A stretch of DNA of 64,000 nt from Candidatus Binataceae bacterium (GCA_035308025.1 DATGHL010000047.1:430-64429); one strand, 5' to 3'; shown: positions 8,897 through 39,731, counted from the first letter of the stretch. Made by a program: numbers and translations. Notes: a model not told the origin generated them from the sequence alone.

Positions 8897-11293
8897 CTAG
8901 CTTTGGGCTTGCGCGCCGTAGCGGCGTTCGGGCTCGATGTGCGTCAGGAAGTGCGGCCGCATCCACGCAATCAACGCCGGCAGGATGAGCATCGCGGCAA
9001 GCAGATTGGTGACCATCAGGAGAATTAGGATCAGGCTCATCTCGTTCTGAAAGAGCAACGGCGACAAGGCCCACGGCGCAAGGCCGGCGACGATCACGAG
9101 GAAGGTGGCGATGACCCATCGGCCCGCACCGTGAATCGCGTAGCGCACCGCGTCATCGAGCTCGAGTCCCGCCGCCATCGCGTCCTGAATCCCGGCCAGG
9201 AGGTAAACGGCAAAGCAGAGACCGAGCCCCATCCCGAGCGAGATGACCGAGATGGTATCGGTGGTGAGACCGATGGCATTCTGATTCAAGTAGGCGAAGC
9301 CGAGAAAGTTTGCCGCCATCGCGATCAGCACCAGCAGTGCGCCGGCGAGGAACGAACGCGCCATAATTGCGCCGAGGATGAAGATAGCTGAGAGGACGAG
9401 CGCGAGATTCAGTAGATTGAGCCGCTGCGTGACGTCATTGATTGCCAGGTAGAGTCCGGCTTCGCCTCCAAGGTAGAGCAGCTTGACCTGATTGAGACCA
9501 TGGTCCGGCGTCACGCGCTCGCGCACAAAAGTGTCGAGGTCTGCGCGCAGGCGGTTGAGCCGCGCCGCAGTGTGGTCCGGCAGGAGCATCAGGATACGGC
9601 CGTTGCGTGCGGAGGGCTGGTAGGCGAAGTAGGCCTTGGGCTCGTCGGGCGCGGCGGCGCCGAAAAAGAAGCCCCACAGATTCGCACTGAGCATCTCGCT
9701 GTCGGGAATCGCCATGAACTTGGGAAAACCGTTGTGCAGCAACATGTTCATCGGCTTTTCGGCGACATTGCCGAAGCCGAGCACGGCCGAGGCGTCGCCG
9801 CGTTCGAGCAGATAATCTGCGAGGTCGTCGCCCATCCGCATCGTCGCGGTGCCCATCGTAGATTGAGGGCTGGGGAACTCCGGTGTTTCGAGCACCACCC
9901 AGGCGGTATTGGTTGGAACAAAGCGGGCGATTTCAGCGGTGTCCCGATTGATTTTCGCATCTTCCCGATAGATCGGAGTGCCTGGGGTCTGATAGCCGAT
10001 AAGCACGCGTTGCTCGGCGACGAGGCCCACAATCAGGGCAACGACGGCGGCGCCGATCAGGACGAGGCGCGGCCAGCCGGCGCTAATCGTGAGATTGGTG
10101 AGGCGATCGCGCCATCCGCGGCGCACGCCAACCGGAGCGCGATGCAGCTCCGGTGACGGCAGATAGCTCACGAGAATCGGCTGACCGGCGAAAACCACGA
10201 CGAGACTCGCGCCCATCCATACCGCGCCGCCGATTCCGAGTTGCCGCAAGACCGGGATACTGCCCACCGCGACGAAGGCAATGCCCGCGATACTGATCAG
10301 CACGGCGATCAGGCCCGGCCGCCACAGCGCATCGGCGGTGGTCACGCAGGCTCCAATCTTATCGTCCTGGCGATCGAGCTCGTGATAAAAATGTCCCTGC
10401 CATTGGATGCCGTGACCGAGATCCCGCGCGGTCATGATCAAGGGTAGGACCAGCATCGCCGGGTCGAAGTTGTAACCCTTGAGGCTCATAAAGCCGACGC
10501 CCCATATGGCGGAACAGACCCCGGTCACGACCGGCGCCCACCAGCCGCGCCGCCGTCCGAGGCAGAGCCAGGTCAACAACAGCATCAGGGCGAATGACGC
10601 GCCGAAGATCTTCTCGATGCGCGGCAGATAATGGTAGCCCCAGGCCGCGAACATCAGAGGGCCACTGGCATAAATCGTCGTGTTGGCGTCCTGATGATCG
10701 CGAATGATTTGCTGAACGCCATCGAAGACCCCCACATAATCGAGCGTGCCTTCATTGAAACTCGCGACCACGAGTGCGCCCTTGAGATCTTCGGTGACGA
10801 GGCCCGCGAGCTGCTCGCGATGCACCAGGACATTAGCCTTGAGCTCGGCGATACCGGCAGCCGTCGCCGGGACCTTGGGCCACATGAAGGGTTCCGACTT
10901 GAGGACACCGGGCAAGGCGCGAGCGTAAAGCACGCGATAGGAAGCGAGCGAAAAGAGTTCGTTATGGTTGACCCCGGGGAGGGCGTTAACCTTATCGCTC
11001 ATATCCTGGATCGCGTGCAGCGTGCGCGGCGTGAAAATGTCGCCGTCTTTCACCCGCAGCATCAGGACTAGCGTCTGCGCCCCGCCATAGGCTTCGCGAA
11101 ACTGCCGGTAGAGGACGGTGTTGGGGTGCGCCGCCGGAAACAGGTCTTCAAATTTGGTCGCGATCGGAACGTGCATTGCCTGGTAACTCATGAAGGCGGT
11201 CACGGCGAGCAGGAGCAGACCGACCGGCTGGCGAAAGTCGAGCAGCCACGCGCCGTAGCTCCGCTGACGGGTCGAGCTTTTCCGATTCACCAC
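8897..11293 (-). CDS. RND-superfamily exporter of the MMPL/HpnN-like type (two 6-TM bundles with SSD, two periplasmic loops)
   Basis: 798 aa. The topology is TM1, large loop, 5 TM, large loop, 6 TM. It stands alone with no adaptor or OMF adjacent. Confidence 0.6.
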   Translation of the reverse strand: MVNRKSSTRQRSYGAWLLDFRQPVGLLLLAVTAFMSYQAMHVPIATKFEDLFPAAHPNTVLYRQFREAYGGAQTLVLMLRVKDGDIFTPRTLHAIQDMSDKVNALPGVNHNELFSLASYRVLYARALPGVLKSEPFMWPKVPATAAGIAELKANVLVHREQLAGLVTEDLKGALVVASFNEGTLDYVGVFDGVQQIIRDHQDANTTIYASGPLMFAAWGYHYLPRIEKIFGASFALMLLLTWLCLGRRRGWWAPVVTGVCSAIWGVGFMSLKGYNFDPAMLVLPLIMTARDLGHGIQWQGHFYHELDRQDDKIGACVTTADALWRPGLIAVLISIAGIAFVAVGSIPVLRQLGIGGAVWMGASLVVVFAGQPILVSYLPSPELHRAPVGVRRGWRDRLTNLTISAGWPRLVLIGAAVVALIVGLVAEQRVLIGYQTPGTPIYREDAKINRDTAEIARFVPTNTAWVVLETPEFPSPQSTMGTATMRMGDDLADYLLERGDASAVLGFGNVAEKPMNMLLHNGFPKFMAIPDSEMLSANLWGFFFGAAAPDEPKAYFAYQPSARNGRILMLLPDHTAARLNRLRADLDTFVRERVTPDHGLNQVKLLYLGGEAGLYLAINDVTQRLNLLNLALVLSAIFILGAIMARSFLAGALLVLIAMAANFLGFAYLNQNAIGLTTDTISVISLGMGLGLCFAVYLLAGIQDAMAAGLELDDAVRYAIHGAGRWVIATFLVIVAGLAPWALSPLLFQNEMSLILILLMVTNLLAAMLILPALIAWMRPHFLTHIEPERRYGAQAQS

Positions 11294-15973: not shown

Positions 15974-16945
<972 letters not shown>

Positions 16946-22260: not shown

Positions 22261-22335
22261 CGCGCTGTGCGATTTGATCGATAACCACCGGACCGCTATT
22301 GTGGCGCGCAAGCCGATCGCGATGGGTCAAGACTG

Positions 22336-22998: not shown

Positions 22999-23249
22999 CC
23001 CTCTTCGATAGCAACACAGTCTGCGCATCAGGCAAAATCCTGTGACGGCGCGTTATTCAGATGGATGACGCGCCGTTGATCTGTGCATTGGTAGTGGTGG
23101 AGGGAGCTTCCGGCAGCGTGGGAAAGAGCGTTTAATTCTACCGCAACGTTCCAGACGTCGTGTCGTAAAGATTATTGGCGATGCTAAGCGGATCACTTTC
23201 GAGCTGAAGCGTTTTCCACGGCACATCGTCCGTTATCACGAGGAAAGCA

Positions 23250-24536
23250 ATGCCTCATGAAGCAGCTCGCATGAAGCGCGCGAGCCTCTGGCGCGCCAGC
23301 CTGCTCGCGATAGTCGCCGTCGCCGCGGTGCTCCCGTGCACGGCGTTGGCGCAGGCGATGGCGCTCGCCCAGGTGGTCGCCGAGGTCCAGCGCGTCAATC
23401 CGCAGGTCCGTGGCGCGCGCTTTCGCTGGGAATCGGCGCAGCATCAGATTATTCAGAATTACACCCCCGTCGATCCGCAGTTCGCCTTCTCGAACCTCGA
23501 TAGCTGGCGCGGGGTCAACGACGCCGGCGAACAGAGTATGCTGTTTACGCAGGCGTTGCAGTTTCCCGGCAAAGGCCTGCTGCAGGGTCGCAACGCGCGG
23601 CGCACCGCCGGAATCGCCCATCTGACCTATCTCGCCGCAGTGCGCGACATCACGGCGCAGGCCAAAACCGCCTACTACCAGATTCAGCTCGACCTTGCGC
23701 TCAACGATCTGATGACGGAGAACGTCGCGAATCTCGCGCGGGTGCTGAAGGTGACGCAGATCGCCTACACCGCGAATCTCGCGACCCAGGGCGACTATAT
23801 TAATGCGAAGTTCGCGCTCGAGGCCGACCGCGAACTGGTGCGCCAGCAGGCGGTCGCGATCGCCAACGACAAGACCGCGCTCAATATCCTGCTCGATCGC
23901 AAACCCGATGAGCCGTTGCAGGTTGATCTGAATTTCGATCTCGCGACCTTCGAAACCAGTCTCGATCAGGTGATCGATCGCGCCGTCAGCGCGCGCCAGG
24001 AAATCCTCGAAGCCGCCCTCGCGCAGGACAATCAGAATACTGCGGTGACACTCGCCGAGCTTGAATATGCCCCGGATTACACTTTGGGTCTCGGGTACGA
24101 TCATTTTCTTAGCGCGAACTTTGCGCCTGCGCTTAACCATAACAAAGACTGGAATCTCGAGGTCAGTTTCAATCTGCCGATTTTCTTCTGGGCCAAAAAT
24201 GAGGACATCCGCCGCGCGCATCGCGATCTCGACGCCGCGCGCGAAGACCTCGATTCGATTCGCACGCAAACCGCCGGACAGGTGACCGTGCTCTATCGGC
24301 AAATCCTCCGTGCGCGCGAAACCGCGACGCTCTATCAACACACCCTCATCCCGCTGGCCCATCAGGCCTTCGAGGTGATGCTGATCTCATATCAGGGCGG
24401 CAAGAGCGACTTCACCACGCTCATCAGCACCTTCCGTCAGCAAAGCGACGCGCGCGTGACCTATCTGCAGGCGGTCAACCAGTTGCTCGCGCAAAAAGTC
24501 GCGCTCGAGCAGGCGGCCGGAGGCAGCCTGCAGTGA
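23250..24536 (+). CDS. Outer-membrane efflux protein (TolC/CzcC/CusC family)
   Basis: 428 aa with a signal peptide and two OEP repeats. Its stop overlaps the adaptor start (ATGA at 24533-24536). Confidence 0.8.
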   Translation: MPHEAARMKRASLWRASLLAIVAVAAVLPCTALAQAMALAQVVAEVQRVNPQVRGARFRWESAQHQIIQNYTPVDPQFAFSNLDSWRGVNDAGEQSMLFTQALQFPGKGLLQGRNARRTAGIAHLTYLAAVRDITAQAKTAYYQIQLDLALNDLMTENVANLARVLKVTQIAYTANLATQGDYINAKFALEADRELVRQQAVAIANDKTALNILLDRKPDEPLQVDLNFDLATFETSLDQVIDRAVSARQEILEAALAQDNQNTAVTLAELEYAPDYTLGLGYDHFLSANFAPALNHNKDWNLEVSFNLPIFFWAKNEDIRRAHRDLDAAREDLDSIRTQTAGQVTVLYRQILRARETATLYQHTLIPLAHQAFEVMLISYQGGKSDFTTLISTFRQQSDARVTYLQAVNQLLAQKVALEQAAGGSLQ

Positions 24537-25669
24537 GCGGTTTGACCAGGTTGCTTCGGCCGCTCGCGGGCCTCGCCGCAATTGCCGCCTTGCTCGCGCT
24601 CAGCGCGGCCGGATGCGACAGTGCGCCGCCGGCCGACAGCAGCGACAGTCCGCCGCCGATGGTGAGTCTGATCCATCAGGATCAGGGCGCGGATTTGCTC
24701 CAGTTACCACGCGGCGGCGTGCCGGGCATGACCGAGACGACGCTAGCGGCGGTCGATCTGCCGGGCGTGCTCGAGACCACCGGGCAGATCACCTTCGATG
24801 ATCGCCGCGTCGCCAATATCATCTCGCGCGTCACCGGGCGGATCGAAGAGGTCCGCGTCTCCCAGTGGGACAATGTCCAGCGCGGGCAGCCGATCCTGAC
24901 GCTTTACAGCCCCGACTTCATGACCGCGGAGGCCGAATATCTCCAGGCCAAGGCGGCCGGGCCGGCGCTGGCCCCCGGGGGCGCCGACAGCGATCAGTTC
25001 GCGCGCTCGATGCTCGAGGCGGCGCGCCGCAAACTCGATCTGCTGGGCATCAGCCCCGCGCAGATCGAGAGCATCTGGACCGCCGCGCCAAGCTTCGTGA
25101 TGCGCGCGCCGATCAGCGGCACGATCGTGCAAAACCAGGCGCTGCGCGGCTCCGCGGTCAATCCCGGCGACGTCCTCTACTCCGTCGGCACGCTCGACGA
25201 CGTCTGGGTCGTCGCCGACATCTACGAGGACGAACTGGCCCGCGTGCGGGTCGGCCAGCAGCTCGAAGCCGTCGCGACCGCTTATCCCAGCGAGACCTTT
25301 TACGGCACGATCGCCCGCATCAGCCCGGGCGTCGATCCCAACACGCACACAATTCAGATCCGCTGCGAGGTCAAGAACCCCGGCCTTAAGCTCAAGCCGC
25401 AGATGCTCGCCGTCGTGAAGATCCTCGTCCAGCCCGGGCACGCGCTAGTTGTACCGGTCGATGCGCTCGTCTTTGAAACCGACGCCTATATGGCCTATGT
25501 CGATACCGGCAACGGCCGTATCGAGCAGCGCAAGGTGGCGATCGCCTCCTGGAACCAGCCCGGCTTTGCCCGCGTGGTATCGGGACTCACGGCCGGCGAT
25601 CGCGTCATCACCGGCGAGTCGTTGCAGGTCGATCAGTTGTGGAACCGCGCTCACGGGGCCAAATCCTGA
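24533..25669 (+). CDS. Efflux RND periplasmic adaptor (membrane fusion protein, CusB/CzcB-like)
   Basis: 378 aa with HlyD/biotinyl-lipoyl-like and beta-barrel segments. It sits between the OMF and the RND pump. Confidence 0.8.
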   Translation: MSGLTRLLRPLAGLAAIAALLALSAAGCDSAPPADSSDSPPPMVSLIHQDQGADLLQLPRGGVPGMTETTLAAVDLPGVLETTGQITFDDRRVANIISRVTGRIEEVRVSQWDNVQRGQPILTLYSPDFMTAEAEYLQAKAAGPALAPGGADSDQFARSMLEAARRKLDLLGISPAQIESIWTAAPSFVMRAPISGTIVQNQALRGSAVNPGDVLYSVGTLDDVWVVADIYEDELARVRVGQQLEAVATAYPSETFYGTIARISPGVDPNTHTIQIRCEVKNPGLKLKPQMLAVVKILVQPGHALVVPVDALVFETDAYMAYVDTGNGRIEQRKVAIASWNQPGFARVVSGLTAGDRVITGESLQVDQLWNRAHGAKS

Positions 25670-25715
25670 GCCGCTTTTTTCAACCGCCGGTCAAGAAAAC
25701 GGCGCAGCAACGGCA

Positions 25716-28700
25716 ATGATCCAGTGGCTGATGGACCTCGCGCTGAGCGCGCGAGTGGTGGTGGTGAGCGCGGCCGTGTTGTTGGCGCTCGCCGGACTCT
25801 TTTCCTTCACCCAACTCGACATCGAAGCCTATCCCGATCCGGTGCAGCCGATGACCGAGGTGCTGACCCTGCCCAACGGTCTCAGCGCCGAGGAGGTCGA
25901 ACGCCTGGTCACGGTGCCGACCGAGTACGGGATGAGCGGGATGCTGCATCTGACCGCGATGGAATCGATTTCGCTCTACGGCCTCTCCGACATTCGCCTC
26001 TATTTCGATTGGGATAGCAATTACGAATTCGACCGCACGCAGACCATCAACCAGTTGACCTTCGTCACGCTGCCGCCAGGCATCCAGGCCGGGCTCTCGC
26101 CGCAAAATGCGGTCGGCGAGATTTATCGCTACACCGTCCAGAGTCCCAATCACGATCTCATCAGCGAGAAGGAAATCGAAGACTGGGTTTGCGAAAAGCA
26201 GCTCAAGACCGTCCCCGGTGTCCTCGATGTCGAAGGCTTCGGCGGCTTGACCAAGGAATATCACGTCGATCTTGACCCGCCGAAGCTCAACCACTACGGC
26301 ATCCCGCTCACGCAAGTCATTACGGCGATTCAGAATTCAAACACCAACTCCGGCGGCAGCTACCTCAACCTCGGCGAGCAGGCCTTCGATGTCCGAGGAA
26401 TCGGCCTGATCCAAAACCTCGATGACATTCGCAACATCGTCCTCGCGACCAGCAAATCTACGCCGATCAAGCTCGCAAATGTCGGCGACGTTTCCGTCGG
26501 CTGGGCGCCGCGCCTCGGAATTGTGGGGATGAACTACCAGGACGAGGTGGTCAGCGGCATCGTCCTGATGCGCAAGTACGGCAATACGCTGGAGACTCTG
26601 AAGGGCGTCGAGCAGAAGGTAAATCAACTCAATACGCGGGGCATGCTGCCTGCGGGCTACAAGATCGTCCCCTACTACGACCGCACTGGCCTGGTTTACA
26701 CCACCCTCCACACGGTCTTCGAGAATCTGCTGATCGGGATGATGCTGGTCTTTCTGGTCCTGCTGTTTTTTCTCGGTAATCTGCGCGCCGCGCTGATCGC
26801 CGCAGTCAATATCCCGCTCGCGATGTGCGGGGCTTTTATCCTGCTCCACCTGAGCAACACCCCCGCCAATCTGTTGTCACTGGGCGCGGTCGATTTCGGC
26901 ATCATCATCGATTCGACCATCATCGTAGTGGAGAACATCTTTCGCCATCTCACCTCCAGCGAGCTGCCCAGCGAGGGCAAACGGCAGCGGATTGGCCGGG
27001 CGGCCCGCGAAGTCGGCGGGCCGATGTTCTACTCGACCCTGATCTTCCTCATCGCCTTCCTGCCGCTCTTCACGATGCGCGGGGTCGAGGGCGCGATCTT
27101 CTCGCCGATGTCGCATACCTACGCCTATGCGCTGACGACCGCGATTCTGCTCGCGGTCACGCTCTCGCCGGCGCTGTGTTCTTTCCTCCTGCGCCGGGGG
27201 ATGCGCGAGACGCACAACTTCATATGGGAAGCCTTCTCGCATTCCTATCACGCGCTCTTCGTTCGGGTGCTGCGCTGGCCGCGCGCGACGGTGACGATAA
27301 TCATGCTGCTGGTGGCCGGTGGGCTCGCGCTCTTCCCGCGCCTGGGCGGTGAGTTTCTGCCGAAATTGGAGGAGGGCAATATCTGGGCGCACGCAATCAT
27401 GCCGACCACGATCAACCTGCCTCAGGGCGCCAAACTGGTGAGCCGGATGCGCACCGTTTTTCTCTCCTTCCCCGAAGTGGCGAGTGTTGTCTCGCAGCTC
27501 GGCCGTCCTGACGACGGCACCGAGACGACCAGCTTTTTCAACATCGAATTTGCGGTTGATCTCAAACCCGCCGCGGCTTGGCCCGCAGATGTTACCAAGG
27601 AGAAACTGGTCAATCAGATGGACGAAAAACTGCGCCACCGCTTTCCGGGCGTTGATTTCTCCTATTCACAGAATATCGAGGACAATATCGACGAAGCCCT
27701 GTCCGGCGTGAAGGCGGGCTCGAACGCCGTCAAAATTTTCGGTTACGATCTGAAAAGCGACGAGACCCTTGCCGGCCAGATCACCCGGGTGCTTGGCCGG
27801 GTGCGCGGCGTCACCGACGTCTTCATGTTCCGCTCGCTCGGCCAGCCCAACATTGTCATCCGGCCCGACCGCGCGGCCGCGGCCCGTTACGGCCTCAATT
27901 CCGGCGACGTCGCGGCGATCGTGCAGGCCGCGATCGGCGGCCAGGCGGTCACCCAGGTCTACGAAGGTGATCGCACTTTCAATCTGGTGGTGCGCTGGAT
28001 GCCCCAGTATCGCCAGACCGTCGCAGCGATGCGCGGGATTCGCGTCAATGTGCCGGGTGGCGGGGTCGTCCCGCTCGGCCAGATCGCGCAAATCGCGGCC
28101 TCGGAGGGCGCGTCGTTCATCTATCGCGGCAATTTGCAGCGCTACGTGCCGGTGCGTTTCTCGGTTACCGGCCGCGATTTGCAGGGCGCCGTCGCCGAGG
28201 CCAAACGGCGCGTTGCCGACGAAGTCCATCTCCCTGAAGGCACCCATCTGGAATGGGCGGGCGAGTACGGCGAACTCCAGGCCGCCAATCATCGGCTCGC
28301 CATCGTGGTGCCCATCGCGCTGATTCTGATCATGGGCGTCCTCTTTGCGGCTACGCAATCGGTCGTCAACACGCTCATCCTGATGGCGCAAATTCCGCTC
28401 GCCTGTCTGGGTGGCGTGTTGGCCCTGGTCGTGACGCATACGCCCTTCAGCGTCTCTGCCGGGGTCGGCTTCATCTCAATTTTCGCGATCGCGATCATGG
28501 ACGGCATCCTGCTCAACTTTTACATTCACCAGCTTTGGGAACAGGGCTATTCGGCGATGGATGCGATCGTAATGGGCGCGGATCGGCGCTTCCGCGCGGT
28601 CATGATGACGGCGCTGGTCGATGGCCTCGGGCTGTTGCCGGCGGCGCTCTCGACGCGCATCGGTGCGCAGACTCAGCGCCCGCTCGCGATCGTCGTGATC

Positions 28701-28853
28701 GGCGGCGCGCTCTCGATCGCCTTGCTGACGCGGGTTTTTCAACCCACCCTGATGTTCCTCTTCCGCCGCTACATCGGGCTCTCCGAGGAGCGTCGCACGA
28801 TGGCCAATGGCGGACCGGATCCGACGGCCGCGGCTCCCGGCATGAGCGTATAG
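25716..28853 (+). CDS. Heavy-metal-efflux (HME) RND permease, CusA/CzcA family
   Basis: 1045 aa. TM4 has GAVDFGIIIDSTIIVVENIFRH (compare CzcA GAIDFGIIVDGAVVIVEN). The start was trimmed to the ATG at 25716 (MIQWLMDLALS...). Confidence 0.85.
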   Translation: MIQWLMDLALSARVVVVSAAVLLALAGLFSFTQLDIEAYPDPVQPMTEVLTLPNGLSAEEVERLVTVPTEYGMSGMLHLTAMESISLYGLSDIRLYFDWDSNYEFDRTQTINQLTFVTLPPGIQAGLSPQNAVGEIYRYTVQSPNHDLISEKEIEDWVCEKQLKTVPGVLDVEGFGGLTKEYHVDLDPPKLNHYGIPLTQVITAIQNSNTNSGGSYLNLGEQAFDVRGIGLIQNLDDIRNIVLATSKSTPIKLANVGDVSVGWAPRLGIVGMNYQDEVVSGIVLMRKYGNTLETLKGVEQKVNQLNTRGMLPAGYKIVPYYDRTGLVYTTLHTVFENLLIGMMLVFLVLLFFLGNLRAALIAAVNIPLAMCGAFILLHLSNTPANLLSLGAVDFGIIIDSTIIVVENIFRHLTSSELPSEGKRQRIGRAAREVGGPMFYSTLIFLIAFLPLFTMRGVEGAIFSPMSHTYAYALTTAILLAVTLSPALCSFLLRRGMRETHNFIWEAFSHSYHALFVRVLRWPRATVTIIMLLVAGGLALFPRLGGEFLPKLEEGNIWAHAIMPTTINLPQGAKLVSRMRTVFLSFPEVASVVSQLGRPDDGTETTSFFNIEFAVDLKPAAAWPADVTKEKLVNQMDEKLRHRFPGVDFSYSQNIEDNIDEALSGVKAGSNAVKIFGYDLKSDETLAGQITRVLGRVRGVTDVFMFRSLGQPNIVIRPDRAAAARYGLNSGDVAAIVQAAIGGQAVTQVYEGDRTFNLVVRWMPQYRQTVAAMRGIRVNVPGGGVVPLGQIAQIAASEGASFIYRGNLQRYVPVRFSVTGRDLQGAVAEAKRRVADEVHLPEGTHLEWAGEYGELQAANHRLAIVVPIALILIMGVLFAATQSVVNTLILMAQIPLACLGGVLALVVTHTPFSVSAGVGFISIFAIAIMDGILLNFYIHQLWEQGYSAMDAIVMGADRRFRAVMMTALVDGLGLLPAALSTRIGAQTQRPLAIVVIGGALSIALLTRVFQPTLMFLFRRYIGLSEERRTMANGGPDPTAAAPGMSV

Positions 28854-28925
28854 TTAATTCGCCCCGTGCAACTCTGCCCGGCGGGCGGGAAACGTGCTAA
28901 ACGCCATCGTGGAGGGCATCCCATC

Positions 28926-29894: not shown

Positions 29895-30362
29895 ATGGCA
29901 CTGCAAGTTGGATCGCCGGCACCGGACTTTGCGCTTAAATCGAACAAGATGGCGGATGTAAAGCTCTCCGAGCTGCGCGGCAGCAAGGTGCTGCTGCTGT
30001 TCGTCCCGCTCGCCTTCACCCGCGTCTGCACCGGCGAACTCTGCAGCATGCGCGATTCGCTCAAGGATTATGAGGGCATGGACTGCAAGGTCTTCGGCAT
30101 CTCGACCGACAGCCCCTTTGCACTCGACGCCTGGGCCAAGGAGCAGAATTATCAGTTCCCGCTCCTGTCTGATTACAACAAGACCGTCGCTGCGGCCTAC
30201 GATACGCTCTACGCCGATCTCATGGGCTTCAAGGGCGTGTGCAAACGCTCGGCCTTCGTCATCGATCGCGAGGGCAAAATCCGCTACGCCTCGGTCGCCG
30301 AAGACGCGACCAAGGTGCCCAATTTCGACGAGATCAAAGCCTGCCTGCAGCAGCTTCAGTAG
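29895..30362 (+). CDS. Peroxiredoxin (AhpC/TSA-redoxin family, AhpE/PrxQ-like)
   Basis: 155 aa. The peroxidatic Cys lies in the context PLAFTRVCTGELC, within a thioredoxin fold. Confidence 0.8.
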   Translation: MALQVGSPAPDFALKSNKMADVKLSELRGSKVLLLFVPLAFTRVCTGELCSMRDSLKDYEGMDCKVFGISTDSPFALDAWAKEQNYQFPLLSDYNKTVAAAYDTLYADLMGFKGVCKRSAFVIDREGKIRYASVAEDATKVPNFDEIKACLQQLQ

Positions 30363-30371
30363 GTAATGAAC

Positions 30372-30405
30372 CCGGGGCGAGGGAAGTGAATCACCTTCGC
30401 CCCGG
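30372..30405 (+). terminator. GC-rich stem-loop (9-bp stem CCGGGGCGA/TCGCCCCGG) 10 nt after the peroxiredoxin stop; possible terminator (no U-tract)
   Basis: The inverted repeat was read from the sequence. Confidence 0.3.
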
Positions 30406-30704
30406 CGCCACCGCCGTCCACGCCATCGCCTCGCCCTGCAACAACCTGTCAAGTTCGTTTGACAAAGACTGATCAAAGTCCTATGTAAATGTTGACGCTG
30501 GGAACAGCTTCCAGAGTGCGAAGTCGCGGCGGCAGTGCGCTGAATACTCCTGTACGGTCATTGCGAAGCTGAGGTCATCACCCTTCGAGAACGGCAAGTG
30601 CGCCGTCCGTTGGTGCCAAGACTCTCGGTTTGTCGAATCGCTCAGGGAGGCGCTAGTACATCGGATCCGCTTGGGGCGGAGCGCCTAGAGCTAAAGGAGA
30701 GAAT

Positions 30705-32066
30705 ATGAACTCACCAAGGTCTCCAATGCTGCAAACCTTTCAGTGTCGCGAGATTTTACGGGCGCTGGCAATCGTGCCTGTGGTCTGCGCACTACTACTG
30801 GCGGTCAATGGCGGCTCAGCGCGGGCCGAACAGGGCACCCCGCCGCCGCCCGGCACGAAAATCACAATGCAAAATTGGCAGCAATACAAAGACTTCATGC
30901 CTGATGGTTTGGCCGCCCTGTTTGCTGGGAAATTTCAATGGAAGTTGCCTGCAAATGCCGAAATCGACATAGGTCCCACGGTGAACGTTCCGGAGCCCCC
31001 GACCTACCTTGCAGCATCCGAAAAATACGGTAACCAGGTGCAAGTGGTTCACCTACCAAACGGACATTTGGACGTGCGTAATTATGTTGCCGGCGTGCCG
31101 TTTCCAGACCCACAGGAGCCTGACAAGGGCTACAAGGTTCTGGTTAATCTATGGTATTCATACCGACCGCACTTGAACGTCGCCAATATCAAATATCCAG
31201 TTAGAGATTGTATCGTCGATCGCTTTTCGAATATGAATTGCGAATCAATCGATATCGTCTATCGCCAAGAAGGTTATAATACTGATCCGGGAGTGCCCGT
31301 CAGTGAATCAAACAACGTCTGGTACACCGAATATCTAATGGTTGAGGCGCCTGAACAAGCCAAATATACCGCGCAACTGACGCTGTTCTATAAGGATAAT
31401 CAAACCTTTCAAGACGAATATGTCTTCGTTCCAAACCTACGACGCACCCTGCGCCTGTCATCGAGCGCCCGTTGCTCGCCGTTGCTTGGTAGTGATTTAG
31501 CCCAGGATGATGCTCAAGTGTCGGGATTCAATGGCGGAATCGGAGTATTCGACGCGAAGTACTTGGAACGCAAGAAAATAATCGCACTGACGGGTCTGTA
31601 CAACTATTACGCGGTTGGTCATAACTTTCCCATGGGTTTCTACCAACCGCTCATGTTTCCACCGCCATCAATAGGACAGTGGCAGGTGCGTGATGTCGAT
31701 GTACTGGATATTCGACGCGTGCCTTCTGAGGCCCTTGGATACTGCTATGGTAAACGAATCATGTATATCGATACATATTACCATACGGGCCACTGGCAGG
31801 ACCTGTATGATAACAACATGAACCTATGGAAGACGGCTTTGTTAGCGGTGCCTGACGCGGCCAAAGTCCCAGGAGTGCCAGGTGGACATGCCCCCGGACT
31901 CGACGGTTTCTTCACGCTGTGGGACGTGCAGAACGACCACCTGACAATAATAACGGGCCTCAACGAATCAGGTGAGGGCTACTTTGTTAATTCTGATGCA
32001 CCGAAGGAGTTTCAGGACTATAACAGGTTCGGAACACCAGGTGGCCTATCAGAAATTATGCGCTAG
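30705..32066 (+). CDS. Secreted protein of unknown function, probably DUF1329 (LolA-like 'outer membrane lipoprotein-sorting' family)
   Basis: 453 aa with a signal peptide (ALAIVPVVCALLLAVNGGSARA). A strong RBS (AAGGAG) lies 7 nt upstream. The size and composition match the about 450-aa DUF1329 family. The family assignment comes from memory, not from a search. Confidence 0.5.
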   Translation: MNSPRSPMLQTFQCREILRALAIVPVVCALLLAVNGGSARAEQGTPPPPGTKITMQNWQQYKDFMPDGLAALFAGKFQWKLPANAEIDIGPTVNVPEPPTYLAASEKYGNQVQVVHLPNGHLDVRNYVAGVPFPDPQEPDKGYKVLVNLWYSYRPHLNVANIKYPVRDCIVDRFSNMNCESIDIVYRQEGYNTDPGVPVSESNNVWYTEYLMVEAPEQAKYTAQLTLFYKDNQTFQDEYVFVPNLRRTLRLSSSARCSPLLGSDLAQDDAQVSGFNGGIGVFDAKYLERKKIIALTGLYNYYAVGHNFPMGFYQPLMFPPPSIGQWQVRDVDVLDIRRVPSEALGYCYGKRIMYIDTYYHTGHWQDLYDNNMNLWKTALLAVPDAAKVPGVPGGHAPGLDGFFTLWDVQNDHLTIITGLNESGEGYFVNSDAPKEFQDYNRFGTPGGLSEIMR

Positions 32067-32075
32067 CAACTGAAA

Positions 32076-32104
32076 GGCACGCGCCGCTACAAGCGGCGCG
32101 TGCC
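32076..32104 (+). terminator. Perfect 12-bp GC stem with 5-nt loop (GGCACGCGCCGC-tacaa-GCGGCGCGTGCC) 10 nt downstream of the DUF1329-like stop; intrinsic-terminator-like
   Basis: Read directly from the sequence. It is followed by TTCGCCC (a weak U-tract). Confidence 0.5.
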
Positions 32105-32136
32105 TTCGCCCAGACCGAGCGGACACGCCAACTCTA

Positions 32137-33348
32137 GTGCCTGCGCAGCCGCGCGTCCACGCGATCGACTCGCCCTACGCTTGGCGCATGACGGTGATTG
32201 GCTTCGTCACCTGCTTTTTTGTCTTCGGCATAGTCTACAGTTTCGGGGCCTTCTTCAAGCCGCTCGCCGAGGAGTTCGGCGCCAACCGCGCTGGCACCTC
32301 GACCATCTTCGCGATCACCGCGGCAGTCTACAACGCGCTCGGCTTCGCCAGCGGATGGCTCAGCGATCGCTGCGGCCCGCGCCGCGTGATGCTGGTCGGC
32401 GCGCTCGCGATGGGCGCCGGACTTTGCGCCACCGCAGTCGCCCCCACGCTCGGGGTCGCCTACCTCACTTACGGTCTCGGCGTCGGCGTCGGGGTCGCCT
32501 TCACTTACATCCCGGCCCTCGCCCTCGTTGGCGGATGGTTCGCGCGCCGCCGCAACACCGCGATGGGCCTCGCGGTCTCGGGCACCGGCGTGGGCACGCT
32601 GCTTCTCGTGCCGCTGGTTGCTGCGATGATCGGCTGGTGCGGATGGCGGCAGTCCTACGTTCTGATGGGTATCGTCGCGATGCTCGCGCTGGGCAGCTGC
32701 GCGATGCTGGCCGAGGCCGCGCCGCCATCCCCAGTCTCGACGATGGCGCAGCGTAACCATCACTTGATCCGTTCCGCCGATTTCGCGCGGCTCTACCTCG
32801 CGTTCGTCCTGGCCTCGATTTCGATTTACGTCCCGTTCGTATATCTACCTGACTTTGCCGAGTCGCGCGGGGTCTCGACGGTCGCCGCCGCGGCCTTGGT
32901 TGGTTTCGTTGGCGGCGCCAGCATCGTCGGCCGCCTCGGTCTCGGCCCCATCGCCGATCGCGTTGGTATCTTCCCGATCTTCAAAGCGAGCCTGTTGATG
33001 CTGGCCGGCAGCTTTGCGATCTGGCCGCTCGCGCATTCCTACGCGACGCTTGTGCTCTTCGCCGTCGTGATGGGCGCTGCATACGGCGGTATGGTCTCGC
33101 TCTCGCCGACGCTCGCCGCCGAGCTCTTCGGGGTCGAAGATTTGGGCACTACGCTCGGGGCGCTCTACAGCAGTTCCGCGATTAGCGCACTCGCCGGACC
33201 GCCGCTGGTCGGCTACGCAATCGATCACGGCGGCAGCTATCTCTGGGCCGCCGCGATGGGTGGCGGGGCTGGCCTGATCGGCTTCTGCATCCTGATCCCT
33301 TTGCGATCAAGTGAAACGCTCGCGCCCGTTTTGCTTCCGGTAAAGTAA
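32137..33348 (+). CDS. MFS transporter, oxalate/formate-antiporter (OFA)/monocarboxylate-like family
   Basis: 403 aa with 12 TMS. It shares the motif FGIVYSFGAFF.P...EFGA.R...S.IFAITA with the paralog at 58799-59974. An alternative start lies at 32188. Confidence 0.75.
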   Translation: MPAQPRVHAIDSPYAWRMTVIGFVTCFFVFGIVYSFGAFFKPLAEEFGANRAGTSTIFAITAAVYNALGFASGWLSDRCGPRRVMLVGALAMGAGLCATAVAPTLGVAYLTYGLGVGVGVAFTYIPALALVGGWFARRRNTAMGLAVSGTGVGTLLLVPLVAAMIGWCGWRQSYVLMGIVAMLALGSCAMLAEAAPPSPVSTMAQRNHHLIRSADFARLYLAFVLASISIYVPFVYLPDFAESRGVSTVAAAALVGFVGGASIVGRLGLGPIADRVGIFPIFKASLLMLAGSFAIWPLAHSYATLVLFAVVMGAAYGGMVSLSPTLAAELFGVEDLGTTLGALYSSSAISALAGPPLVGYAIDHGGSYLWAAAMGGGAGLIGFCILIPLRSSETLAPVLLPVK

Positions 33349-33450
33349 CCTTATGTGGCTATAGTTAGGTTAAGAATTAAGTGCCGAGAATGCATCTTAT
33401 AGCGCGAATATACATCCGATATTGTCTCACGATTTCCCGCTCGCTAGGCT

Positions 33451-34155
33451 TTGACTAATCATCGTCATGAGCGTCATCCTGAATTGAACACGATCGCCAC
33501 CACGTCAACGCAGCCTTCGCGCTTCTCACGTTTCGCGACGGGAAAGTTGAATCGCGCCAGCCTCAGCCACACCGCCTCCAACCTCGGCGTCGCGCTGCTC
33601 TTTTTCGCCACGTTGATTCCGCATGCCGCGAATTTCGGCGGCGCTCCCGCCAACTGGATCTGGATCGTCGGCGCCGCCCTGATGGGCGTGCTGTCACTCG
33701 TCCGCCTCCCGCCCATCGCGACCGCGATTAATCTGCGCTCCGTGACGGCGACTGCGATCATGATGCTCGCGCCGCCTTTGCTCTTGAACAACGCCGCGCC
33801 CTCCAGCGGCGTGCTCGCAGTCGCGGCGCTGATCGTCGAACTCGTCGGCGTGATCATTACCCAGAGCGCGCGGCTCTATCTCGGACGCAAGTTTGCGCTG
33901 CTGCCGGCCAATCGCGGAATCGTTAGCCGCGGACCTTTCGCCTTTATTCGCCATCCGATTTACGCCGGCTGGCTGATTCTTTCGGTCGGTTATGTGATGG
34001 CCTATCCCAACGCGCGCAACCTCCTCGCGCTCGCGGTGACTGTGCCGTTCATGATCTGGCGCATCCAGCTTGAAGAGCAGCTCCTGCAGCAGGACGCCGC
34101 GTATCGCGCCTACTGCGCCGTCACTCCATATCGTCTGCTGCCGCTGATCTTCTGA
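33451..34155 (+). CDS. Membrane methyltransferase of the ICMT/PEMT (isoprenylcysteine carboxyl / phospholipid methyltransferase) family
   Basis: The C-terminal motif is GPFAFIRHPIYAGWLIL...EEQLL, and there are several TM helices. The start is uncertain; the tracked ORF begins at a TTG and an internal ATG lies at 33682. Confidence 0.6.
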   Translation: MTNHRHERHPELNTIATTSTQPSRFSRFATGKLNRASLSHTASNLGVALLFFATLIPHAANFGGAPANWIWIVGAALMGVLSLVRLPPIATAINLRSVTATAIMMLAPPLLLNNAAPSSGVLAVAALIVELVGVIITQSARLYLGRKFALLPANRGIVSRGPFAFIRHPIYAGWLILSVGYVMAYPNARNLLALAVTVPFMIWRIQLEEQLLQQDAAYRAYCAVTPYRLLPLIF

Positions 34156-34182
34156 CCTGAGCGACCCTTAGCTGCCCATCTC

Positions 34183-34215
34183 GAATTTCTTTTGAGCACC
34201 GCCCCATCGGGCTGT
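34183..34215 (+). terminator. Imperfect hairpin followed by a T8 run (..GCACCGCCCCATCGGGCTGTTGCATTTTTTTT) after the methyltransferase gene
   Basis: Read from the sequence. Such a T-run is rare in this GC-rich window. Confidence 0.35.
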
Positions 34216-34339
34216 TGCATTTTTTTTGAACTCGGTCAGCGAGGATTCGGAACTGATAATCTTTACAACCGTGGCTAATACGGAAGGAGGAGCAATAGAA
34301 AAAGCGGCTGCGTAGTTATCCGTCTGTCTGGGTTCTGAG

Positions 34340-35470
34340 GTGTTGGGGACGCCTGCACGGGTCATCACGATTATAGCTGCGGCGATGCTGGGGATAGCAT
34401 TGGCGGCAGCGAAGAGCTCTGCGGGCGACGTCACGACGTCATCTGCGGACGGGCTCGACATCACCAATTCATCGACCAGATTGCTGCCCGACGATCAGGT
34501 TAATCTGAGTCAGACGTTCGGCATGTGGCAGAATCTGCACGCCACGCATGAGTGGACGCACAGCTCCAACGCGCTCGCGGTGTCGCGGACCCTGCTGCAG
34601 GTCGACGAGAACTACCGGCTGAACGAGAACAACACGTTTTTCGCCCGTGAGTGGTTCGTCTACGAGCCGCCTACGCCTTCAACAGTTCGATCAACACGGT
34701 TCGATTCTGCCGTGCAGAACGCCTACTTGACCCCGTTCTGCGGCAAGACCGGACGTCCTCGAGCAATGCCTGTAAGACTGATCGCGAAGTGGCGCCGAGC
34801 ATCGGCCACTTCCAAAACGATTTTACAACAACTATTCAGTGCGCGGCGTCTGGTGGGAGAACAAGACCGGCCCGCTGACGACTTTCGTCGGCAACCAGAT
34901 CGTGGTGTGGGGCCAGTCGCTGGCGTTCCGCATCGGCGACGTCATCAATCCGCAGGATTTTGTCTGGAACTTTGGTTTCGCCAACCTCGAGCAATCGCGC
35001 AACGCGCAGTGGATGATCCATCCGATTCTGAACCTGCCGGAGTGGGGTCCGCTGCAGTCGAATTTCCTCGAAGTGGTGGTCCAGTCGGGCTTCCAGCCGC
35101 AATGGTGGGAAAACAGCTTCGGCGACGGCCGCTTCGAAGCGCCCGGCGGCGCCGTCAAGGATGGCCGTGCCGGGACCTTTGGCTCGCACACCCTGAGCAT
35201 GCGGTTTGACGTCGCCTACGACAATCAGTCGCGACCCCAGGAGAATTTGACCGCCAACAGCGGCCCGGGCCGTTCTTCGGCTTCGCCACGCAGTTCAGTT
35301 CGCCCGGTAATAATACGCTGATTTGGAAGCCAAGTTTCTATTTGCGCTGCAATACCAAAAATGCTGTCTCGGCGGGCAGCGCCCCGTTCGCCTGCTGGCA
35401 AGGTGGCAGCATCATCGGTGCGCCCTTGCTGCACACCTTCTGGAACTGCCTCGCTGCGCTCATGGGCGCA
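34340..35470 (+). pseudogene. Frameshifted, internally deleted and 3'-truncated tandem duplicate of the downstream 693-aa secreted-protein gene (35811-37892)
   Basis: Three ORF fragments in different frames (34340-35209, 34651-34878, 34839-35321) align in order with residues of about 1-375 of the intact protein. There is an approximately 13-aa deletion. Some stretches are near-identical at the nucleotide level, for example the WWENKTGPLTTFVGNQIVVWGQSLAFRIGDVINPQD block. The RBS AAGGAGGAG is retained at about 34273 but the ATG is lost. Nothing corresponds to the C-terminal half. Confidence 0.85.
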
Positions 35471-35810
35471 TGATGGCGGCCCCACGCCCGACCAACAATA
35501 AAACGCGGTGGTATCAGTCCCGATTTTTGTTGCGGGGGGGTATTGCGTTCACCTCACCGGTTAGCTAAATCCTGCCAGAATCAGTCCGTCAGGCGAGGCG
35601 CGACTGAGGAGGAGGACCGGAAAGCAAGCCCCGCAGCAGCAGTAGCGACAAATTGTCGCGGGCTTGACAAATTAATTTTTGTGCGCAAGTAAGGTTCGTT
35701 GCGCGAGCGGGATTCGTCACGATCCCGGAGGAGTTGGACTGGGATCAGCAACGTGACGCATAGCGGTCGGGACTACCGCCAGGCGTCACATGCAGCGAGA
35801 AGGAGGAGTT

Positions 35811-37892
35811 ATGGGAGCAAGTTTCGGGGGAGCGAAAAAGTTTCTCGGAGTGGCCGCGGCGGCGATGCTCGCGGTAGCATTGGGCGCTGCAAATAGCTCC
35901 GCGGGCGACGTCACGGCGTCACCTGCGGACGGTCTCGACATCACCAATTCATCGACCAAGTTGTTGCCCGACGGTCAGGCCTCGGAGTCGAGCTGGCTGA
36001 GCGGCTTTCACATGTCGGGTTATGCAACCCAGACCTTCGGCATGTGGCAGGATCCCTCGAGCACGCACGCTTGGACCCGCAGCTCGAACCAGTTGGCGGT
36101 CTCGCGCACGCTGCTGCAGGTGGACGAGAACTACCGGCTGAACGAGAACAACACCTTCTTCGCCCGCGAGTGGTTCGTCTACGAGCCGGTGTATGCCTAC
36201 AACTCGTCGAACAACACCAACATCTCGGCAATCGACAACGCCTTCTTGTCGCCGTTCTGCGGGAAGACGGGCACGCCGTCTTCCGACCGCTGCAAGATCG
36301 GTCGCGAGACGGCGACGAGCCCGGGCCATTTCTACAATGACATCTACAACAACTACCAGGTGCGCGACGCCTGGTGGGAGAACAAGACCGGCCCGCTGAC
36401 GACCTTTGTCGGCAACCAGATTGTCGTCTGGGGTCAGTCGCTGGCGTTCCGCATCGGCGACGTCATCAATCCGCAGGATCTGCTGTGGAACTTCGGTTTC
36501 GCCAACTTGGAGCAGTCGCGCAACGCGCAGTGGATGGTCCATCCGATCCTGAACCTGCCGGAGTGGGGACCGCTTCAGTCGAATTTTCTGGAGCTGGTAA
36601 TCGAGCCGGGCTTCCAGCCGCAATGGTGGGAAAATAGCTTCGGCGACGGCCGTAACAACGGCCCCGGGGCCGACACGAAGGCCGGTCGCTACGCGACCTA
36701 CGCGCCACACGGCAATCCCAGCCTGCGCTTCGACATCGGCTACGACCATGCGTTCGACCCGAGCATGAACGTTACGACCGGCCCCGGGCCTTGGAACGGG
36801 ATCGCCACGCCTTTCTATTCTGCGGGCAACAACACCATGCCGTGGAAGCCGATCGGCTACGTTAATTGCGGCAACCACCCGACGCCCTTCAGCCCGCACG
36901 GCGGTAACTGTCTAGTCAGCGGCTCAATTGTCGGACCGCCGCTGCAGCATATCTTCTGGGAGTGCCTCAGCGGTGCCCCGGGGACCTACGCGAAGACAAA
37001 TCCGCTGCCGGCGGGTCTGCGCAAAGCCCCATTTGGCCCTGGGGGCTGCAACCTGACCCTGTCGCACAACAATCTGTCCTTCGGCGCGGCGGGCGACTAC
37101 GCCTTGTGGGACACCGGTCCGTACCACATTCCCGGTATGCAGCCGTCGAACTGGAATGACGGCGCGCGTTTTCACACGCTCATCGGTTCAACTGAACTGA
37201 CGGCGTTGTACTACAACGACAACCTCAACGGCGGCTTTCCGGCCTTCCGGTTCGGCGGCAATGGGCTGCCCTACTATACGAATCTGGATCAGATTTACTT
37301 CCCAGACATCCAGATCGTGGGTGTGACCGCGGATCGGCCGCTGCCGGTGCCGGCCTCGGTCAGCGAGTTTCTGCCGATTGTCGGCCGCGCGGAAGTGACC
37401 TACACCAATCACGAGCAGTTCTACGACAGCCGGCCGACGGCCTTCAGCGGCGTGCGCTACTCGGACGTGGTGAAGGAGATGGTGGCGCTGGACATCGACC
37501 AGGCCTACGCGCCGTGGCTGACCAAGACCGGCAATCTGACGGCCTTCTTCGAGGTCTTTGACGACATCACGATGGACAATTCGAAGCTGACGCCGGTGAC
37601 GGCATTGGACTCGAAGCGCAACGACAAGAATGAAGTCTACGCCTTGGCGAGCATCGGAACCGGCTACTACAACGAAGACATCGAGCCGACCTGGACGATG
37701 ATCTATCAGCCCAAGGGGACGACCTTCGCGCTGTTCCCGACGCTGGTGCTGAATCCGCCTTGGACCAAGAAGTACTTCGTCAAGTTGCAGGCGATCGATG
37801 TGTTCGGCAGCGATCCGTTGCACGGCCTGGGCCTGTTCAAGGGTCAGAATCTGCTGACCGCCCAGTTCCAGTACAACTTCAACGTGCTCTAG
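35811..37892 (+). CDS. Large secreted Trp/Asn/Gly-rich protein of unknown function, possibly DUF1302-like outer-membrane protein
   Basis: 693 aa with a signal peptide (FLGVAAAAMLAVALGAANSSAG). AAGGAGGAG lies 5 nt upstream of the ATG at 35811. It has 8 Cys and two WWEN motifs. The C-terminus (QFQYNFNVL) is beta-rich, as expected for a barrel-like protein. It co-occurs with the DUF1329-like gene. The DUF1302 assignment is an inference. Confidence 0.5.
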   Translation: MGASFGGAKKFLGVAAAAMLAVALGAANSSAGDVTASPADGLDITNSSTKLLPDGQASESSWLSGFHMSGYATQTFGMWQDPSSTHAWTRSSNQLAVSRTLLQVDENYRLNENNTFFAREWFVYEPVYAYNSSNNTNISAIDNAFLSPFCGKTGTPSSDRCKIGRETATSPGHFYNDIYNNYQVRDAWWENKTGPLTTFVGNQIVVWGQSLAFRIGDVINPQDLLWNFGFANLEQSRNAQWMVHPILNLPEWGPLQSNFLELVIEPGFQPQWWENSFGDGRNNGPGADTKAGRYATYAPHGNPSLRFDIGYDHAFDPSMNVTTGPGPWNGIATPFYSAGNNTMPWKPIGYVNCGNHPTPFSPHGGNCLVSGSIVGPPLQHIFWECLSGAPGTYAKTNPLPAGLRKAPFGPGGCNLTLSHNNLSFGAAGDYALWDTGPYHIPGMQPSNWNDGARFHTLIGSTELTALYYNDNLNGGFPAFRFGGNGLPYYTNLDQIYFPDIQIVGVTADRPLPVPASVSEFLPIVGRAEVTYTNHEQFYDSRPTAFSGVRYSDVVKEMVALDIDQAYAPWLTKTGNLTAFFEVFDDITMDNSKLTPVTALDSKRNDKNEVYALASIGTGYYNEDIEPTWTMIYQPKGTTFALFPTLVLNPPWTKKYFVKLQAIDVFGSDPLHGLGLFKGQNLLTAQFQYNFNVL

Positions 37893-38018
37893 AATCGAGA
37901 TCGACGAGCAAAACGGCGGCGGGCGCTCATCGCGCCCGCCGCTCATGTTTTGGAGAATCGGCAGGGGTTCCGCCCCCCAAGTCAATCCGCGCTGCGTAGG
38001 AAGCGCGCTGGCCGCGCC

Positions 38019-38513
38019 TCAAGCCTCGCGATAGGCGCGCAGCGCTTCGCCCGCCAACTCGTAGTTCGGATGTCCGCTCGCGGAATTGAGTTCACCCGTC
38101 GCCTTGAAACCGATGCTCAGATAGAGCCGTGCGGCCTGTTGGTTGTCGGCGTGGCAGCTCAGCTTGACCACCGCGCAACGCGGATACTCGCGCCGCGTCA
38201 GCCGGATTACTTCCACCATCGCCGCGCGACCATAGCCGCGCCCTTGATAGTGCTCATCGATCAGAATGTCGTCGATCCAGTATTCCTCAGTGGTGGTGGG
38301 GTCGCAGACTGTGCAGACAAAACCGACTGCCGCCGGGCCGTCGCAAATCAGATGCGACGCGTACACATATTCGTCACCCCAGCGCCGCACTAAAGCCGCG
38401 GCGAGCGAAAAGATCGGCGTTGCGACGAAGGCTCTCTGTTCGGGTAAAACTTTTAACTCAATCGCGGCCAGCCAGTTGCTGCGGTCGATTTTCGCGAGTT
38501 TAACTTCCATCAC
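38019..38513 (-). CDS. GNAT-family N-acetyltransferase
   Basis: 164 aa with the acetyl-CoA-binding motif (QGRGYGRAAM). Confidence 0.75.
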   Translation of the reverse strand: MMEVKLAKIDRSNWLAAIELKVLPEQRAFVATPIFSLAAALVRRWGDEYVYASHLICDGPAAVGFVCTVCDPTTTEEYWIDDILIDEHYQGRGYGRAAMVEVIRLTRREYPRCAVVKLSCHADNQQAARLYLSIGFKATGELNSASGHPNYELAGEALRAYREA

Positions 38514-39712: not shown

Positions 39713-39731
39713 CGCTTGGAAACTGCTCCGC

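Follow-up and report, generated by a model that had tools for sequence, protein, structure and literature searches.

A candidate divergent DUF1302-type barrel subfamily of Binatota, encoded in a probably mosaic gene neighbourhood

DUF1302 and DUF1329 proteins are widespread envelope proteins with clear fitness phenotypes on fatty esters, monoterpenes and aromatics. We analyzed a 64-kb stretch of DNA (the window) from a Candidatus Binataceae metagenome-assembled genome (MAG). There, genes for a peroxiredoxin (Prx), a 453-aa DUF1329 protein, an MFS transporter, an ICMT/PEMT-like methyltransferase and a 693-aa protein follow one another on the plus strand. A sequence-only reading of this DNA had described that co-directional string correctly and had taken its last four genes as one envelope system, with the MFS transporter and the methyltransferase replacing the usual RND exporter. 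Our results point elsewhere. From profile alignment and a structure model, the 693-aa protein is best described as an outer-membrane beta-barrel of a DUF1302 subfamily that lies beyond the current Pfam model. The region around it is, with a probability of roughly two in three, a mosaic of separate units (a solo-type barrel gene, a decayed barrel array and an inserted DUF1329 gene), not one system.

A hypothetical protein of a Candidatus Binataceae MAG is 100% identical to the 693-aa protein, and an independent JGI soil contig carries the same 22 kb at 99.99% identity. The open reading frame (ORF) starts at its second ATG, after the Shine-Dalgarno (SD) sequence GAAGGAGGA. The product begins with a hydrophobic helix (residues 8-29) followed by SSA/GD; the signal peptides proposed earlier for this protein and for the 453-aa protein were both recovered. 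The 693-aa protein has no direct Pfam match even at E = 10 and no NCBIfam match. It has hundreds of homologues, however, and 9 of 10 tested pass the gathering score of PF06980 (DUF1302), solely over profile positions 77-212. We built a subfamily profile from 85 members and ran it against 1.84 billion proteins. The search returned 450 cluster representatives, among them near-full-length PF06980 members of 505-546 aa at 1e-32 to 1e-16. When the subfamily was compared by hhalign with a set of PF06980 members, the probability was 100% and the E value 1.1e-46 (columns 93-671 against 39-526, 473 aligned). Aligned columns extend from the first barrel strand as far as the C-terminal "QFQYNF" and reach both C termini. 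This full-length homology bears out the earlier DUF1302-like label, despite the lack of a direct PF06980 match. Residues ~300-440 (~140 aa) have no aligned counterpart in canonical DUF1302, but the same gap leaves 60-70 template residues unaligned, so the net extra length is nearer 70 residues. The unaligned segment holds an invariant cysteine, C385, and a nearly invariant one, C413. The protein has six cysteines, not eight as had been counted, and the two WWEN motifs reported for it are at residues 188 and 272.

The AlphaFold2 model of the 693-aa protein (pLDDT 78.5, pTM 0.79) is a large beta-barrel with ~18-20 strands, which answers in the affirmative the earlier question of whether it is a barrel. 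Its best Foldseek matches in the PDB are channels, namely the chitoporin 7vtz, MOMP, AlgE and OccAB2-4, at probability 1.0 and target TM scores of 0.50-0.58. The likeness holds at fold level only: sequence identity amounts to 6-9%, the query exceeds these channels by 230-290 residues, and the query TM score is 0.32-0.38. The predicted 18-strand structure published for canonical DUF1302 also gives OccAB and AlgE as matches (PMC13499233). Ahead of the DUF1302 core, residues 32-60 (35904-35990), at the mature N terminus, form a low-confidence extension with conserved L42, L52, P53 and Q54 (consensus "L.VTNS...LLPQ"). This extension might be a docking peptide for a periplasmic partner.

We collected 72 distinct genomic loci with barrel relatives (handles of the type L002) and searched each for relatives of all the genes in the window. 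Almost every locus derives from a MAG that is named Candidatus Binataceae or carries a proteobacterial or deltaproteobacterial label. Conservation of the neighborhood had been set beforehand as the test that could refute a four-gene unit. The DUF1329-MFS-ICMT-barrel string occurs in none of the 72 loci and in no metagenome locus; we found it only in a second assembly of the same strain. Most barrel homologues are solo genes in unrelated contexts or members of tandem arrays. Solo genes lie, for example, next to a ferredoxin/P450 pair, next to a luciferase-like monooxygenase and an inositol-phosphate synthase, or next to a CoA-transferase and a hydantoinase. Arrays have three copies in L002 and L051 and two in L028, L043 and L046. 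The closest homologue in the genome collection (L013, 74% identical) has neither an MFS nor an ICMT gene nearby. A DUF1329 gene adjoins the barrel gene in only 7 of the 72 loci, an MFS gene in four and an ICMT gene in three; the loci named below, the window among them, number five for MFS and five for ICMT. Like that of the window, the barrel genes of four relatives (L002, L015, L029 and L031) belong to a conserved backbone that consists of a CzcA-type RND, an SMP-30/gluconolactonase-like gene (SGL), Prx, MFS, an optional ICMT and between one and three barrel genes. In all four, SGL and Prx share 80-92% identity with their window counterparts, and the whole efflux set upstream of SGL in the window is syntenic in L015 and L031.

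The DUF1329/LolA-like assignment of the 453-aa protein, also part of the earlier description, held up well. The protein matches PF07044 at 1e-29 (104 bits, cutoff 23.1), and its model (pLDDT 88, pTM 0.86) finds the Porphyromonas gingivalis LolA3 structure 9tp6, 3bk5 and the DUF1329 structure 4z48 as best PDB fold matches, with target TM scores of 0.80-0.85. A PDB sequence search with the same protein gave a marginal match to 3bk5 only; the relationship came from the fold search. It is the C-terminal ~240 residues that superpose on these LolA-like proteins. Unlike them, the 453-aa protein has an extra N-terminal region of ~150 residues, and the likeness does not imply lipoprotein transport.

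Several features mark the DUF1329 gene as a newcomer to this site. Its GC content at third codon positions (GC3) is 0.55, versus 0.70-0.84 (about 0.80) in every neighboring gene. Right behind the Prx stop codon, a remnant copy of the MFS gene 5′ end aligns with the start of the MFS gene in L031. The 1.7 kb that holds DUF1329 is bracketed by a 23-nt direct repeat (30415-30437 and 32154-32176, 91% identical), and a perfect inverted repeat directly follows the DUF1329 stop codon. In all four syntenic relatives, Prx runs straight into MFS with no DUF1329 between them. Because of the foreign GC3, the flanking MFS duplication and the absence from syntenic loci, we regard DUF1329 as an inserted gene, the product of a probable recent insertion in this lineage only that split the first codons of the MFS gene and duplicated the target. 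The present MFS start, a GTG at 32137, has no SD and lies 31 nt past the perfect hairpin; the duplication zones are 30385-30437 and 32096-32176. The insertion may have impaired MFS expression.

Orthologues of the window DUF1329 (77-81% amino acid identity) are found in another, likewise conserved context, in the order TetR, Amidohydro_3, DUF1329, and then a second Amidohydro_3 gene or a hydrolase gene. Their GC3 is as low (0.52-0.61), while cassette-type DUF1329 paralogues have a normal one. Members of this low-GC3 orthogroup, from several different Binataceae genomes, lie at 30705-32066 in the window, L006:10001-11371, L008:10001-11368 and L011:4504-5856, with neighboring genes at ~0.80. The low GC3 reflects either a codon bias kept by selection or repeated movement between genomes. 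We considered a defined mobile element and rejected it, since DNA similarity to the orthologues is limited to the mature coding part (30846-32065) and no flanks are shared.

Between the ICMT-like gene and the 693-aa gene, in what had been passed over as a gap, lies a decayed copy of the barrel gene. This pseudogene keeps its SD, has ATA at the position of the start codon, and carries an early stop and at least two frameshifts. About 13 codons that include the first conserved strand are deleted, and the last 300 residues are missing. The upstream array copies in L002 and L015 are its counterparts. Over 22 kb, the window and the independent contig differ solely by a 2-bp indel (35058-35059) that lies inside the pseudogene, which fits relaxed selection. 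Frameshifted barrel copies also stand beside intact ones at L015:12780-14846 and L016:8208-9993, both in MFD-labelled MAGs.

DUF1302/DUF1329 systems usually have an RND partner. In AmeABCD of Castellaniella defragrans, AmeA is a DUF1302 outer-membrane protein, AmeB a DUF1329 protein, AmeC a BNR/Ycf48-like protein and AmeD an HAE3 RND. Ame confers monoterpene tolerance and Nile Red efflux, and pleiotropic cofitness is reported for Shewanella and Pseudomonas. Binatota MAGs contain cassettes with the same four components as AmeABCD and Shewanella Sama_1588-1591, with a member of the barrel subfamily taking the place of AmeA. The L055 cassette reads HAE3 RND, BNR/Ycf48-like, HAE3 RND, barrel (PF06980 6e-7) and DUF1329, and L056, L058, L060 and L066 have the same components. 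A barrel gene stands beside DUF1329 and an HAE3 RND in 5 of the 72 loci. BNR genes are also found near barrel genes in L032, L039 and L052. These cassettes place the barrel subfamily in the functional slot of DUF1302. The window differs: it has no such cassette and no BNR gene within its 64 kb, its RND is solo and 20 kb away, and its barrel and DUF1329 genes arrived separately and are split by MFS, ICMT and the pseudogene. The arrangement that characterizes AmeABCD-type systems, four genes in one cassette or in two cofit loci, is not found within it.

Could the four genes of the string nevertheless form one system for a lipid-like cargo, with the MFS transporter in the RND role? The genes are indeed co-directional, their families had been assigned correctly, and two assemblies of one strain both contain the string. 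However, DUF1329 is an insertion of foreign composition that is missing from all four syntenic relatives, and its orthologues, like most barrel homologues, are located in unrelated contexts; for these reasons the proposed system is unsupported, and we consider it very improbable. The phylum, moreover, uses the ordinary RND/BNR partnership. The gaps between string genes measure 70-340 nt, too wide for a tight operon, and DUF1329 is followed by a hairpin. A smaller module is conceivable, in which the barrel passes a carboxylate-type compound, the MFS transporter carries it through the inner membrane and a carboxyl group is methylated by the ICMT-like enzyme. Its elements do recur: MFS-ICMT-barrel in the window, L002 and L031, MFS-barrel in L015 and L029, and ICMT-barrel in L022 and L024, where the other L024 neighbors are unrelated; the barrel fold also resembles carboxylate channels (OccAB). 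But the identity of SGL and Prx shows that most of this recurrence stems from common descent of a single backbone region. Neither L015 nor L029 has ICMT, and the closest barrel homologue lacks both genes nearby. The ICMT relatives found in metagenomes form ICMT-ICMT pairs that adjoin an RND gene and no barrel; the number of barrel copies ranges from 1 to 3, and the gaps measure 100-400 nt. We hold this module to be unlikely, if less so than the four-gene system.

A system split in the manner of Pseudomonas deserves more weight than either, although we still think it doubtful. Here the barrel, DUF1329 and the HAE3 RND of the window would work in trans, with BNR/Ycf48 encoded elsewhere. Compared with the cassette RNDs of Binatota in L055-L066, the window RND shows 44-47% identity, and split DUF1302/DUF1329 clusters that stay cofit are documented in P. 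stutzeri and P. putida. In P. putida, PP_0765/PP_0766 (DUF1302/DUF1329) and PP_2018/PP_2019 (BNR/RND) are required for growth on Tween 20 and butyl stearate. For the Pseudomonas DUF1302-DUF1329 pair, AlphaFold-Multimer predicts a complex in which the LolA-like protein docks on the barrel (ipTM 0.84; PMC13499233). The window resembles the PP_0765/PP_0766 system in being spread over two loci and in having a beta-barrel and a LolA-like partner of the kind for which that complex is predicted. PP_0765 and PP_0766, however, are adjacent and co-regulated by a LuxR-type regulator, while the window shows no adjacency by descent and no LuxR; in contrast to PP_0765, its barrel is unrecognized by PF06980 and has a long segment unaligned to DUF1302. 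Within the window there is no BNR gene. Its barrel and DUF1329 share only 41-43% identity with their cassette counterparts and both belong to large paralogous families, and the DUF1329 orthogroup normally sits beside amidohydrolases.

We therefore favor the mosaic, and conclude that DUF1329 lies near the barrel gene by chance. Some points weigh against this reading. The inserted DUF1329 may have been retained because it works with the nearby barrel, and co-directional genes may be co-transcribed by read-through. The MFS/ICMT-barrel adjacency recurs, also in L024 where the other neighbors differ, and may reflect a functional link. In L015 and L016, sequencing error may account for the frameshifts, which would then not be marks of pseudogenes.

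If the mosaic reading is right, the 693-aa barrel would be an outer-membrane channel of a divergent DUF1302 subfamily that is present in multiple copies per genome, with copies gained and lost. Its gene would be the last intact array copy at the backbone site SGL-Prx-MFS-(ICMT)-barrel(s), where the upstream copy has decayed, and the inserted DUF1329 would encode an independent periplasmic LolA-like carrier. By analogy, each protein presumably does the generic job of its family, in which hydrophobic or amphiphilic molecules are moved between outer membrane and periplasm. Any cooperation between barrel and DUF1329 would occur in trans between independently transcribed genes, possibly with the HAE3 RND, and MFS and ICMT would stand outside it. 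Separate transcription of the barrel gene is suggested by indirect evidence: the hairpin after DUF1329, the 300-nt gap with its leader hairpin, and a strong terminator-like hairpin 3′ of the gene. A scan for consensus promoters found nothing useful.

Many barrel genes share a hairpin in their 5′ leader. Its stem sequence varies among paralogues, its loop carries GGGG(A), and its 3′ end keeps a near-constant distance of 19-33 nt from the start codon, just 5′ of a strong SD. With stems of ≥6 bp, the hairpin is found in 26 of 62 distinct leaders, against a mean of 1.2 in shuffled leaders, and in ~4 of 325 other SD-bearing ORFs of the same loci. With stems of ≥7 bp, 104 such hairpins occur in 1.32 Mb (both strands), 25 of them within the pre-barrel zone. 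A covariance model built from 14 leader hairpins gave 24 matches at E ≤ 10, of which 20 are barrel-gene leaders. In the model-fitted alignment, six of nine pairs show double-sided changes, and covariation is 0.43, compared to 0.20 in shuffles and ≤0.20 with slid partners. MAFFT plus RNAalifold predicted no structure for the leaders because the stems were misaligned; the analysis was instead based on anchored hairpin counts and the covariance model. Rfam has no match for the window or for the leaders of L051. Other examples are at L024:9904-9923, L035:605-626, L051:5158-5179 and 7554-7575, L039:7332-7352 and ~25 other loci. The proximal hairpin of the window leader is bipartite (7+5 bp), and one outer-stem pair changes from A-U to G-C in L031. 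Leaders of DUF1329 orthologues have no G-loop hairpin, and a similar 5-bp hairpin ahead of the window DUF1329 may be due to chance.

The leader hairpin may be a new cis-regulatory RNA motif; possible roles, as far as sequence can suggest them, are a 5′ stabilizing stem-loop, a CsrA-type site or an SD-sequestering switch. A 5′ stabilizing stem-loop is found in ompA, and CsrA/RsmA sites have GGA in a hairpin loop and a further GGA in the SD. The barrel leaders resemble both in that the hairpin lies at a fixed short distance 5′ of a strong SD, with a loop of GGGGA or GGGA. They differ in having no Rfam match; the likeness is a lead only. A search of the collected locus sequence, 1.3 Mb and thus a part of the genomes, turned up no CsrA homologue, which says little about CsrA in the organism. 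A conserved box, (GA)CCGTCCTC, is present ~45-50 nt 5′ of the leader hairpin in L024 (9850-9870), L068, L029, L032, L052 and L015. The CCGTCCTC box could pair with segment GGGGACGG of the hairpin as well as with the SD, GAGGA, which hints at alternative pairings, such as a switch or a pseudoknot. In other subgroups of leaders, additional hairpins with GGGGG or GGGGA loops lie further upstream.

This is a Binatota-specific, multi-copy, Pfam-invisible DUF1302 subfamily, and what is new about it is the expansion, the solo and tandem genes, and the conserved leader. In the literature that we were able to search, no paper links Binatota with DUF1302 or DUF1329. An uncultured soil phylum thus has an entire DUF1302 subfamily that Pfam does not see, in RND/BNR cassettes and, more often, as solo multi-copy genes, which suggests that the barrel is able to work without a dedicated pump alongside. 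In a more speculative and rather unlikely extension, the Binatota barrels would be a large family of stand-alone, substrate-specific channels whose copies duplicate in tandem, decay and change locus, many of them under one post-transcriptional leader control, and the MFS-(ICMT)-linked copies, that of the window included, could form a new RND-free route for carboxylate uptake or export. The conserved leader hairpin is a testable regulatory handle. For annotation, DUF1302-like outer-membrane barrel is a label that can now be given to the "hypothetical proteins" of this subfamily in MAGs of Binataceae. Co-directional neighbors seen in one genome alone should not be taken for a system.

The assignments of the two membrane proteins of the string stand with some qualification. 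The MFS transporter, earlier called OFA-type, is related to the OFA/MCT families, with scores below the curated NCBIfam cutoffs: the best model is an L-lactate MFS (6e-52, 176 bits, cutoff 320), and the oxalate/formate antiporter (OFA) model TIGR00890 gives 125 bits (cutoff 375). A second OFA/MCT-like MFS at 58820-59956 (minus strand), 52% identical to the first, lies between ftsZ (57492-58778) and a GTP-dependent phosphoenolpyruvate carboxykinase gene (60015-61793). The ICMT/PEMT-type call is supported by both Pfam gathering scores (ICMT 36.7 bits, cutoff 24; PEMT 36 bits, cutoff 25), while the isoprenylcysteine equivalog model scores 34, far below its cutoff of 160. A reciprocal search of metagenomes returned ICMT relatives on five short contigs, as tandem ICMT-like pairs next to an RND gene (L085:3623-5154, L086:1860-3414, L087, L088 and L089). 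No barrel gene is present on these five contigs, which speaks against ICMT as a dedicated barrel partner. A convergent RND pump directly borders the L086 pair, an arrangement also seen for ICMT and barrel in L024 and the window.

The positions of all features are given in Table 1. Prx and the GNAT acetyltransferase border the string as had been described, the latter on the minus strand. Strong SD sites had been claimed throughout; they are there for Prx, DUF1329 and the 693-aa gene, and none is evident for MFS and ICMT. The earlier description had missed two complete RND efflux sets, neither of the MMPL type, that directly flank the string. The HAE3 gene 20 kb away is indeed the only MMPL/HAE3-type RND in the window. 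A hidden Ame cassette around it was considered and rejected, as its neighbors are lipoate and 2-oxoacid dehydrogenase genes.

Table 1. Features of the window discussed in the text, with positions counted from its first nucleotide
Feature	Position	Strand	Basis or remark
Solo HAE3/MMPL-type RND transporter	8897..11293	-	NCBIfam HAE3 5e-16, Pfam MMPL 8e-9
Outer-membrane factor, membrane fusion protein and CzcA-type RND efflux set	23250..28853	+	OEP, HlyD_D23, CusA/CzcA TIGR00914 3e-248; conserved backbone upstream of the string
SGL	28866-29780	+	Pfam SGL 5e-60; conserved backbone
Prx	29895-30362	+	AhpC-TSA 7e-38; conserved backbone
Remnant copy of MFS gene 5′ end, left insertion border	30385..30437	+	Aligns with MFS start of L031
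DUF1329/LolA-like periplasmic protein with signal peptide, inserted gene	30705..32066	+	PF07044, model, GC3
Perfect 15-bp inverted repeat (hairpin)	32074..32106	+	Directly 3′ of DUF1329 stop; 100% complementary, 3-nt loop
OFA/MCT-like MFS transporter	32137..33348	+	MFS_1 5e-44
ICMT/PEMT-like membrane methyltransferase	33451..34155	+	ICMT 6e-9, PEMT 1e-8; public gene call starts at 33484
Barrel pseudogene, decayed upstream copy	34283..35467	+	tblastn pieces match residues 5-391 in three frames
Predicted structured 5′ leader of barrel gene	35721..35789	+	Hairpin 35721-35746; proximal hairpin 35753-35789, loop CGGGACU
Predicted outer-membrane beta-barrel, divergent DUF1302 subfamily, signal peptide	35811..37892	+	Homologues, profiles, model; SD 35800-35808
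Terminator-like hairpin, strong, bidirectional	37915..37943		Between barrel gene and GNAT; 12-bp stem, 11 GC pairs
GNAT acetyltransferase	38019-38513	-	Convergent; outside the string
Membrane fusion protein and multidrug-type RND pump	38561-42917	-	Convergent; outside the string

Elsewhere in the window, three ORFs of 557, 331 and 233 aa (68-1741, plus strand; 15944-16939, plus strand; 22327-23028, minus strand) are without a Pfam match at E ≤ 0.001. Some such ORFs may be spurious, opposite real genes, as with 15944-16939 and the minus-strand gene at 15974-16945. The product of the gene at 1916-3319 (plus strand) matches the 56-kDa selenium-binding protein family (SBP56) at 3e-186, and this gene adjoins genes for a GMC oxidoreductase and an MFS transporter. 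Bacterial SBP56 homologues include methanethiol oxidases.

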